From IMG/VR virus record IMGVR_UViG_3300014205_000201: a DNA stretch of 23,129 nucleotides. One strand, 5' to 3'. The DNA comes from a virus. Lineage: Duplodnaviria > Heunggongvirae > Uroviricota > Caudoviricetes. Below are positions 13,882-14,233 of this stretch, one piece after another (position 1 is the first letter of the stretch; every line of letters begins with the position of its first letter). A program made the position numbers and the translations under genes. The notes beneath the pieces were generated by a model. That model searched no databases, was not told where the DNA came from, and worked only from the letters and a program-made list of their open reading frames with translations.

Positions 13882-14233
13882 TTATTGACGAGTACGTAGC
13901 ACCATGAATCCACCGACAACTGCTGATTTAACCACAATCCAGATGGTATCTGAACTATTATGATTGCAGCAGCCGCAAGGACCACAGGGAGCACGGTCAT
14001 CAGTTGTAGACCACCATATGTAGCGTTGGTAATGTTAGTTATGGTTGTATTAGCAGAACCAGTTGTAGCTGGCATTGAGCTTGCAACGTTGGCTACGATT
14101 TCCGCAGAAACCATAATCAAAATTGCGGCAATGACTACTGCTAAGATTGTGTAGGAACTCGGTATGGGTATCCTCTTGCACCCATAACTACATTTAAAAC
14201 CCCGCGCTTGTTGCGTAGGAGTTTGCCGAACAT
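13882..14233 (-). CDS. Putative major capsid protein of spindle-shaped-virus type, three exons: join(14233..14176, 14146..13960, 13927..13882), 96 aa
   Basis: Spliced product MFGKLLRNKRG-VLNVVMGAILAVVIAAILIMVSAEIVANVASSMPATTGSANTTITNITNATYGGLQLMTVLPVVLAAAAIISAVVGGFMVLRTRQ*. Exons sum to 58+187+46=291 nt. It has a basic leader ending KRG, two hydrophobic helices and three N-x-T sequons in the loop, with its own promoter and terminator. Confidence 0.75.
13928..13959 (-). other. 32-nt BHB-type mRNA intron (intron 2)
   Basis: RNA parse: GCUGCUGC|AAUC|AU^A|AUAGUUCAGAU-ACC-AUCUGGAUUGU|GGUU|AA^A|UCAGCAGU, with a 4-bp central helix, an 11-bp intron helix and a 7-bp exon helix. Removal gives GCA ATC ATA TCA GCA (AIISA) in frame. 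Confidence 0.82.
14147..14175 (-). other. 29-nt BHB-type mRNA intron (intron 1)
   Basis: RNA parse: GUUAUGG|GUGC|AA^G|AGGAUAC-CCAUACCGA-GUUCCU|ACAC|AA^U|CUUAGC. Removal gives ATG GGT GCA ATC TTA (MGAIL) in frame; retention gives a UAG after 30 codons. Confidence 0.75.

Follow-up and report, generated by a model that had tools for sequence, protein, structure and literature searches.

How does a viral gene yield its coat protein when its reading frame closes after 30 codons and the rest of the protein stands in another frame? The question is raised by a 23,129-nt stretch of the virus record IMGVR_UViG_3300014205_000201 in IMG/VR (called the window, at its full length), in which a 29-nt insert at 14147-14175 divides a small coat-protein gene. 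The original prediction described this insert as an intron with a relaxed bulge-helix-bulge (BHB) motif, noticed a hairpin that competes with the motif, and proposed that the two folds form a conformational gate controlling capsid synthesis. Comparison with relatives of the gene indicates that the insert is very probably a genuine BHB intron of the tRNA type. The joint reading that we consider likely is a 29-nt relaxed HBh' BHB intron in the coat pre-mRNA of an uncultivated archaeal virus, with the hairpin as a by-product and splicing that is constitutive, not gated. Coordinates are window positions throughout, and all features of intron 1 and of the coat gene are on the minus strand, as are all genes around intron 1 (Table 1). 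WIN stands for the copy in the window, L-numbers for DNA loci of relatives and P-numbers for metagenomic homologue proteins.

From the ATG at 14233, an open reading frame (ORF) of 30 aa runs to the UAG at 14143-14141 (ending ...MGARGYPYRVPTQS and the stop) if the insert is retained, just as had been stated, and a second frame from about 14150 encodes a hydrophobic protein. A search with this downstream frame returned 24 small metagenomic proteins, and the intact relatives (P0009, P0005, P0014-17, P0020 and P0025) read ..(GVL)NVVMGAILAVV.. without a break. When two intact homologues were run against the window by tblastn, three collinear segments in three frames were obtained, which correspond to residues 1-19, 20-82 and 83-96 of the intact homologue; no second copy of the coat-protein gene was found in the window by tblastn with the intact homologues. 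Excising exactly 14175..14147 joins ..VVMGA to ILAVV.. in frame, as in the intact homologues, which agrees with the claim that the intron must go if the coat protein is to be made. Removal of this insert together with a second one, intron 2, gives a 96-aa product with the normal start and end of the family, terminating in RTRQ and a stop as P0002 does. The insert-bearing DNA is identical (0 differences) in contigs of a landfill metagenome (2018) and a groundwater metagenome (2022), with depths of 12.8 and 35.6, so the insert is not an assembly error; the window itself may derive from either of them.

The geometry of the insert is that of a BHB. In RNA order (5' to 3') it reads G, an AGGA..UCCU stem, ACAC and AA, and exon 1 ends in ..GGUGCAA. 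The central helix GUGC/ACAC (G-C, U-A, G-C, C.A) has three of its four positions paired and one C.A mismatch, and a 3-nt bulge adjoins it at each end, one on either strand. The inner helix h' (AGGA/UCCU) begins beside the 5' bulge and can be extended to 7 pairs if a mismatch and a bulged base are allowed (-2.1 kcal/mol); such a stem is present in every intron found at this site. The outer helix h of a strict hBHBh' motif is not formed beside the 3' bulge, where the local pairs are one G-C and one G.U. Among the introns at this site, 83% of the cells in the outer-helix columns are paired and two fail, and the helix fails in L013. Because the outer helix is absent or incomplete, the motif is of the relaxed HBh' type, and the relaxed BHB with its C-A mismatch and weak intron stem was correctly described. 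CAA precedes both boundaries, so that four cut positions give an identical mRNA; the BHB rule selects 14176/14175 and 14147/14146, where the cut after the second bulge base has the tRNA 37/38 geometry (PMC4090602).

Further evidence comes from relatives, whose gene is interrupted by five other sequences (27-31 nt) at the identical nucleotide, after GGN GCA A; the DNA compared was that of the relatives other than P0013, P0023 and the 57-kb contig of P0002. The six same-site introns differ inside, and what they have in common is the A A/R and A N/U bulges (the slash marks the predicted cut), a central helix of four positions and an inner stem starting directly after the bulge. All four central positions are paired in L002, L013 and L016. 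In the true register 88.9% of the central-helix cells are paired, versus 28-58% in slid registers, and 8 of 500 shuffles reach the true value; counted over the six sequences, these columns show 91.7% pairing. Besides, the second central pair changes along with the Gly wobble position (U-A three times, C-G twice, A-U once). L006 and L013 leave no ambiguity in the junction, and there the rule of cutting after the second bulge base gives an in-frame Ala-Ile-Leu; alternative BHB registers that we tried by hand for WIN and L006 break the frame or the pairing. The introns of WIN and L020 are homologous: aligned without gaps, they agree at 16 of 29 positions (z = 2.9, reached by 0 of 300 shuffles), and three compensatory double changes separate them among the 7 inner-stem pairs of WIN. 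Likewise, the L002 and L016 introns are homologous (z = 4.4) with two compensatory double changes. The BHB is itself the minimum-free-energy (MFE) fold in L013a, L013b and L016 (two introns, three gene copies), and in L006 it lies 1.9 kcal/mol above the MFE.

One of these loci has a history of its own. On the 54-kb contig L013 (2900-3710), two tandem coat paralogues carry an identical 27-nt intron at the same site and differ in exon 1, which implies either a duplication after the intron had been gained or the copying of the intron between the paralogues.

In the mechanism that we propose, the tRNA-splicing endonuclease of the host, EndA, would cut both 3-nt bulges behind their second base, and the exons would be joined by RtcB, the RNA ligase of the host. 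Removal of intron 1 and intron 2 would leave the 96-aa protein collinear with its insert-free relatives. In the complete pre-mRNA, a 9-bp helix between exon 1 and exon 2 would take the place of the hairpin and allow the BHB to form; it might also keep the exons together for ligation, and splicing would need no gate. Neither an EndA nor an RtcB gene was found in the window. Motifs of the relaxed HBh' type are handled by hetero-oligomeric (alpha2beta2) endonucleases in Thermoproteota and their relatives (PMC4090602, PMC2738675), and by analogy the host of WIN is predicted to require an endonuclease of relaxed specificity (alpha2beta2 or epsilon2). The only hint at the host, and a weak one, is given by L019 (JBAZEV010000193.1), a short, low-coverage contig of 3.1 kb that carries a related coat gene with three inserts and is binned to a metagenome-assembled genome of Candidatus Bathyarchaeia.

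The competing hairpin also exists as it had been described, spanning the 5' splice site and excluding the BHB. It pairs UAUGGGUG of exon 1 with UACCCAUA of the intron over 8 bp (7 Watson-Crick and one G.U, -8.9 kcal/mol alone), and it belongs to the MFE fold of all local contexts from ±20 to ±80 nt with a predicted probability (P) of 0.95-0.99. Its strength is that of chance. In the ±40 nt context the BHB is 6.0 kcal/mol less stable than the MFE, a cost that is 5.8 ± 2.8 kcal/mol in shuffles and as high or higher in 46% of them. When the 14 loop bases were shuffled, an exon-1 stem of at least 8 bp arose in 12.7% of trials, and the local region as a whole is no more stable than its shuffles (z = +0.69). 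No such hairpin is present in L006, L002, L013 and L016, four of the five other introns at this site. L020 keeps an equivalent one, in which the intron arm CGCUCAU forms 7 bp including two G.U pairs in the local MFE. The differences of this arm from WIN are three one-sided transitions (U/C, A/G, C/U) opposite G or U, where any transition preserves pairing. Transitions make up 10 of the 13 differences between these introns, and the retention is explained by transition bias. Between WIN and L020 no two-sided compensatory change was found in the hairpin, and the sole change of L020 on the exon side breaks a pair. A conserved, covarying alternative fold, such as marks a switch, is not what the hairpin represents. 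In RNA that is short or still nascent the hairpin is a real fold, but most likely it is a by-product, peculiar to this lineage, of an intron that is weak.

A different kind of competitor was seen in L002 (768-810), where intron bases pair with the first exon-2 bases over the 3' splice site; in the ±40 nt context the BHB of this locus is 6.8 kcal/mol less stable than the MFE.

Longer RNAs are predicted to fold otherwise. Whether the RNA runs from its 5' end to 14000 or comprises the whole 416-nt pre-mRNA, the hairpin has P = 0.00 at both 15 and 37 °C, and at 55 °C the full-length prediction is 0.05. The hairpin is likewise at 0.00 in the full-length fold of L020, while a long-range helix reaches 0.94-0.95 in WIN and L020; the central pairs reach 0.3 in WIN and 0.6-0.8 in L020, and the inner stem of WIN reaches 0.91. 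This long-range helix joins UAGUUAUGG of exon 1 with CCAUAACUA of exon 2, about 135 nt downstream, over 9 bp; it stacks on the exon-1 strand of the central helix (Ha), and its 3' strand lies about 100 nt from the 3' bulge of the intron. With 14044-14036 exchanged in silico for the synonymous, non-pairing version of L001, the hairpin rises again to P = 0.95 and the BHB falls to 0. The hypothesis of the helix was drawn from the WIN fold and then checked in relatives, over 13 loci. All its pairs form in four of them (WIN, L020, L008 and L011), and the nine other loci have 4-6 of the 8 scored pairs. In the order WIN, L020, L008, L011, the Val/Ile wobble pair is U-A, A-U, U-A, G-C, and the Val/Thr wobble pair is A-U, C-G, U-A, U-A. 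Four fully paired rows were obtained in 2 of 5000 column shuffles and in none of the slid registers, by a control that ignores phylogeny; relatedness alone cannot make different complementary pairs at these loci. L008 and L011 have the helix and no intron at site 1, so the helix is not tied to the hairpin. As the partner of Ha lies in the intron, not in exon 2, the long-range helix would be the only substantial link between the exons after both cuts, and in this fold model it possibly serves as an exon tether for ligation.

Several points weigh against a constitutively spliced BHB intron with an incidental hairpin. WIN has the weakest BHB of the six: its inner stem is worth -2.1 kcal/mol against -2.7 to -6.5 in the others, its central mismatch adjoins the 5' bulge, there are only 2 local outer pairs, and even when the RNA is folded at full length, P is no more than ~0.3 for its three Watson-Crick central pairs. 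Nascent RNA that extends to the intron end is predicted to hold the hairpin (P = 0.97). Both of the homologous introns (WIN and L020) have the hairpin and both lie in genes with the long-range helix, which makes 2 of 2 loci versus 2 of 11 others. For RNAs of about 400 nt, fold predictions are unreliable, and they leave ribosomes and the kinetics of co-transcriptional folding out of account; the column shuffles ignore phylogeny.

These points bear on the rival explanations to different degrees. It appears improbable that selection has kept the hairpin as a conformational gate which ribosomes, temperature or a protein would open and which would set the spliced share of the coat mRNA. The two folds do exclude each other, the hairpin dominates the local folds and the nascent RNA, the BHB is the less stable structure in the ±40 nt context, and a 7-bp version is retained in the local MFE of the homologous L020 intron. 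However, the introns of L006, L002, L013 and L016 do without the hairpin, its changes show no two-sided compensation and the three transitions of L020 keep pairing automatically, its stem length and energy cost are within the range of shuffles, and it vanishes from the full-length folds of WIN and L020. Besides, no trigger is identifiable. A ribosome that opened the hairpin would also cover Ha and with it the BHB, and would halt 3-5 nt after the 3' splice site, so that translation should hinder the BHB; opening by translating ribosomes is judged mechanistically unlikely. The original prediction made the gate depend on the hairpin being populated, and here the folds, which are predictions, give both answers: it is populated in local and nascent RNA and unpopulated in the complete RNA. 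The proposed control of capsid synthesis is not supported.

A second possibility, unlikely but better placed than a gate, is a co-transcriptional relay, in which the hairpin would mask Ha on the nascent RNA until transcription of exon 2, about 135 nt downstream, frees the 5' splice site and supplies the exon tether. EndA would then cut only once the tether exists, and the three-way strand exchange among hairpin, BHB and 9-bp helix would act as a built-in timer, not as a regulated switch. The predicted order agrees with it (hairpin at 0.97 in the nascent RNA, then helix at 0.94 with the BHB present in the full-length RNA), loss of complementarity in the 3' strand restores the hairpin in silico, both hairpin-bearing introns are in genes with a fully paired helix, the helix has covariation at synonymous sites, and with a local outer helix of just 2 bp an exon tether of some kind is needed. 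On the other hand, L008 and L011 have the helix without the site-1 intron or the hairpin, the association of 2/2 versus 2/11 loci has a Fisher estimate of about 0.08 from very few loci, the order of events is entirely a thermodynamic prediction, and the hairpin itself bears no sign of selection. Finally, the insert might stay in the RNA, through ribosome bypass (a hop as in T4 gene 60) or frameshift, or as part of a pseudogene or an assembly error. This is very improbable: the stop codon soon after the insert and the hairpin at the take-off region resemble bypass superficially, but the 27-31-nt inserts that relatives carry at this site are unrelated and share only the features that define a BHB, with covariation, the exons match intact homologues across three frames (82.5% identity), the DNA is the same in two metagenomes, and the window holds no other copy of the gene. 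Translational bypass was in addition tried as a candidate by its codons and rejected, as the take-off GCA and the required landing ACA do not match.

Table 1. Features of the coat-protein gene, its neighbours and the related loci (window positions unless a locus is named).
Feature	Position	Strand	Remarks
Exon 1 of coat-protein gene	14176..14233	-	19 codons and 1 base, ..KRGVLNVVMGA; tblastn segment 14233..14177 = residues 1-19 of P0015
Intron 1, putative, 29 nt	14147..14175	-	relaxed HBh'-type BHB; removal restores the conserved junction; six independent introns at the site
Ha, exon-1 strand of central helix, GUGC	14178..14181	-	Gly codon bases 2-3 and Ala codon bases 1-2; pairs with 14149-14152
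Hb, intron strand of central helix, ACAC	14149..14152	-	A14152 opposite C14178 is the C.A mismatch
5' bulge A A/G	14175..14177	-	predicted cut 14176/14175; A A/R in all six same-site introns
3' bulge A A/U	14146..14148	-	predicted cut 14147/14146; A N/U in all six introns
Inner stem-loop h'	14153..14174	-	pairs in intron numbering 2-23, 3-22, 4-21, 5-20, U6 bulged, 7-19, 8-18, 9.17 mismatch, 10-16; loop AUACC
UAG of the unspliced RNA	14141..14143	-	ends translation after 30 aa (ORF list)
Exon 2	13960..14146	-	first hydrophobic helix, NTT/NIT/NAT N-glycosylation-type sequons, start of second helix; tblastn segment 14147..13959, 82.5% identical to P0009
Intron 2, putative, 32 nt	13928..13959	-	same geometry rule; BHB fold 1.7 kcal/mol above MFE, central pairs P = 0.37-0.46
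Exon 3 (..SAVVGGFMVLRTRQ, stop)	13882..13927	-	tblastn segment 13926..13885
Hairpin, exon-1 arm UAUGGGUG	14179..14186	-	in local folds
Hairpin, intron arm UACCCAUA	14163..14170	-	overlaps 5' arm and loop of the inner stem
Long-range helix, 5' strand UAGUUAUGG	14182..14190	-	Val-Val-Met-Gly codons; abuts Ha, overlaps hairpin arm by 5 nt; predicted P = 0.94
Long-range helix, 3' strand CCAUAACUA	14036..14044	-	Thr-Ile-Thr-Asn codons
Long-range helix copies	L020:64-72 with 210-218; L008:17-25 with 134-142; L011:1462-1470 with 1610-1618		compensatory synonymous changes
Same-site intron, 28 nt	L006/L007		
Same-site intron, 31 nt	L002		
Same-site intron, 27 nt	L013		in two tandem paralogues
Same-site intron, 31 nt	L016-18		
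Same-site intron, 29 nt	L020		
HNH endonuclease-like gene	13079-13750	-	weak PHROG match, E = 0.0036; directly after the coat gene
NUMOD3 and REase_MTES_1575 protein	19961-20914	-	other flank of the structural genes
PMT_2 mannosyltransferase-like	11922-13082	-	downstream block
Beta-helix protein	9584-11857	-	downstream block
PKD-domain protein	8941-9591	-	downstream block
Radical SAM	4282-5268	-	downstream block
Two GT4 fragments	2962-3876, 3873-4289	-	downstream block
Asn/NAD-synthase-like protein	1826-2965	-	downstream block
Two methyltransferases	3-869, 860-1420	-	downstream block

Inserts of about 27-33 nt are found in the coat family at no fewer than six positions: after ..VLN, after MGA, after VVI/AV, inside EIV/xNV (the slash marks the interruption), between VVLA and AAAII, and after AAII. 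The survey drew on L011:1380-1640, L014:1310-1700, L016:1350-1700, L019:680-1060 and L009:50-400, and the comparison of BHB geometry covered the MGA site. Up to three inserts occur in a coat gene of about 300 nt (L011, L014, L019). At the site of intron 2, some relatives have in-frame inserts of 30 nt (L009:300-350, L011, L014:1595-1635; proteins P0003, P0010, P0013 and P0024). Gene callers translate these as 10 extra residues (..YPRD..-like), and therefore database proteins of the coat family contain stretches of intron that would not be translated. A metagenome scan gave 4 loci. In IMG/VR, two protein-pattern scans and a search with an exact intron 20-mer found no relative of the coat gene or the intron, a degenerate pattern for the WIN/L020 intron lineage gave 7 unrelated chance matches, and the phage collection contained no DNA match to the window. 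Neither Rfam nor ARAGORN gave a match in the window.

For the coat protein, no family match was found in Pfam, PHROGs or NCBIfam. The sole match of the family profile to PDB is SSV19 VP1 (7xdi_A), which is weak (E = 0.055) and nearly full length, and the AlphaFold2 (AF2) model, with helices at 11-45 and 70-97 and a mean pLDDT of 71, has the same protein as its top Foldseek match (weak, E = 1.0). Weak but consistent points (the size, the two hydrophobic helices, the N-x-T sequons, the nearby genes for a large beta-helix protein, a PKD-domain protein and glycosyltransferases, and the VP1 matches) suggest a small, two-helix coat protein that may be like VP1 of the SSV type. The spliced N-terminus (14176-14233; homologues P0005, P0009 and P0014-17) has a basic stretch, K/R-G/A and a long hydrophobic helix, by visual resemblance only an archaeal class III (prepilin-type) signal, and models of class III signals, pilins and archaellin N-termini in Pfam, PHROGs and NCBIfam gave no match to the coat protein. 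Downstream of the coat gene, positions 1-13082 of the minus strand hold a glycosylation and modification block, which together with the N-x-T sequons would fit a glycosylated virion. Endonuclease-like genes flank the structural genes on both sides.

The nearest precedent in a protein-coding gene is the BHB intron of the cbf5 pre-mRNA in Desulfurococcales and Sulfolobales, which is cut by EndA and often has a relaxed BHB-like motif (Watanabe 2002; Yokobori 2009, PMC2738675). In both cases the intron is short, interrupts a protein-coding gene and has to be removed if the protein is to be functional. Unlike cbf5, the gene in the window encodes a viral coat protein, its putative introns have 27-32 nt, and the inserts of its family occupy at least six positions with up to three in about 300 nt. 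Non-canonical tRNA introns with HBh' or hBH motifs are described for Thermoproteota (Marck and Grosjean 2003; PMC4090602), and they share with WIN the two 3-nt bulges around a 4-bp helix, the incomplete outer helix and the cut geometry of position 37/38. In contrast to tRNA introns, WIN has no tRNA body that holds the exons, and the predicted 9-bp exon-exon helix may substitute for it, which is a new suggestion.

For viruses, putative "introns" of 12 bp have been described in genes of the rudivirus SIRV1 (Peng et al. 2004, as cited in PMC2738675). They resemble the WIN insert as short inserts in protein-coding genes of an archaeal virus, but they are in frame, have no demonstrated BHB or splicing and may simply be translated, whereas the WIN insert changes the frame, introduces a stop codon and conforms to a conserved BHB geometry. 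The IRE1-dependent splicing of HAC1/XBP1 mRNA is unconventional, depends on tRNA ligase and is regulated (mentioned in PMC4090602). Cleavage of an mRNA at stem-loops by protein alone, a tRNA ligase and a change of frame that alters the protein would be common to both, as inferred for WIN. However, the IRE1-dependent splicing is regulated through activation of the nuclease and not through a conformational switch of the RNA, and it involves another enzyme and another domain of life. We found no report in the literature of a BHB intron in a viral protein gene; the precedent in protein genes is essentially only the cellular cbf5, and in viruses only the 12-bp inserts of SIRV1. What the present analysis adds is the series of same-site introns with their covariation, the long-range helix, and a test of the switch that came out negative.

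A switch that regulates splicing would be of greater consequence than a constitutive intron, but it is unsupported, and the long-range helix makes the claim concretely testable. The relay through this helix, if true, would let an mRNA make up for the missing tRNA body, and it would be the first folding relay to be described for protein-only introns of archaea. As a constitutively spliced BHB intron, the insert would make an essential virion gene dependent on the tRNA-splicing machinery of the host. With six different introns at the same codon position and inserts of the family at no fewer than six positions, the coat gene lends itself naturally to studying how BHB introns arise and persist, and also how an mRNA without a tRNA body keeps its exons together.

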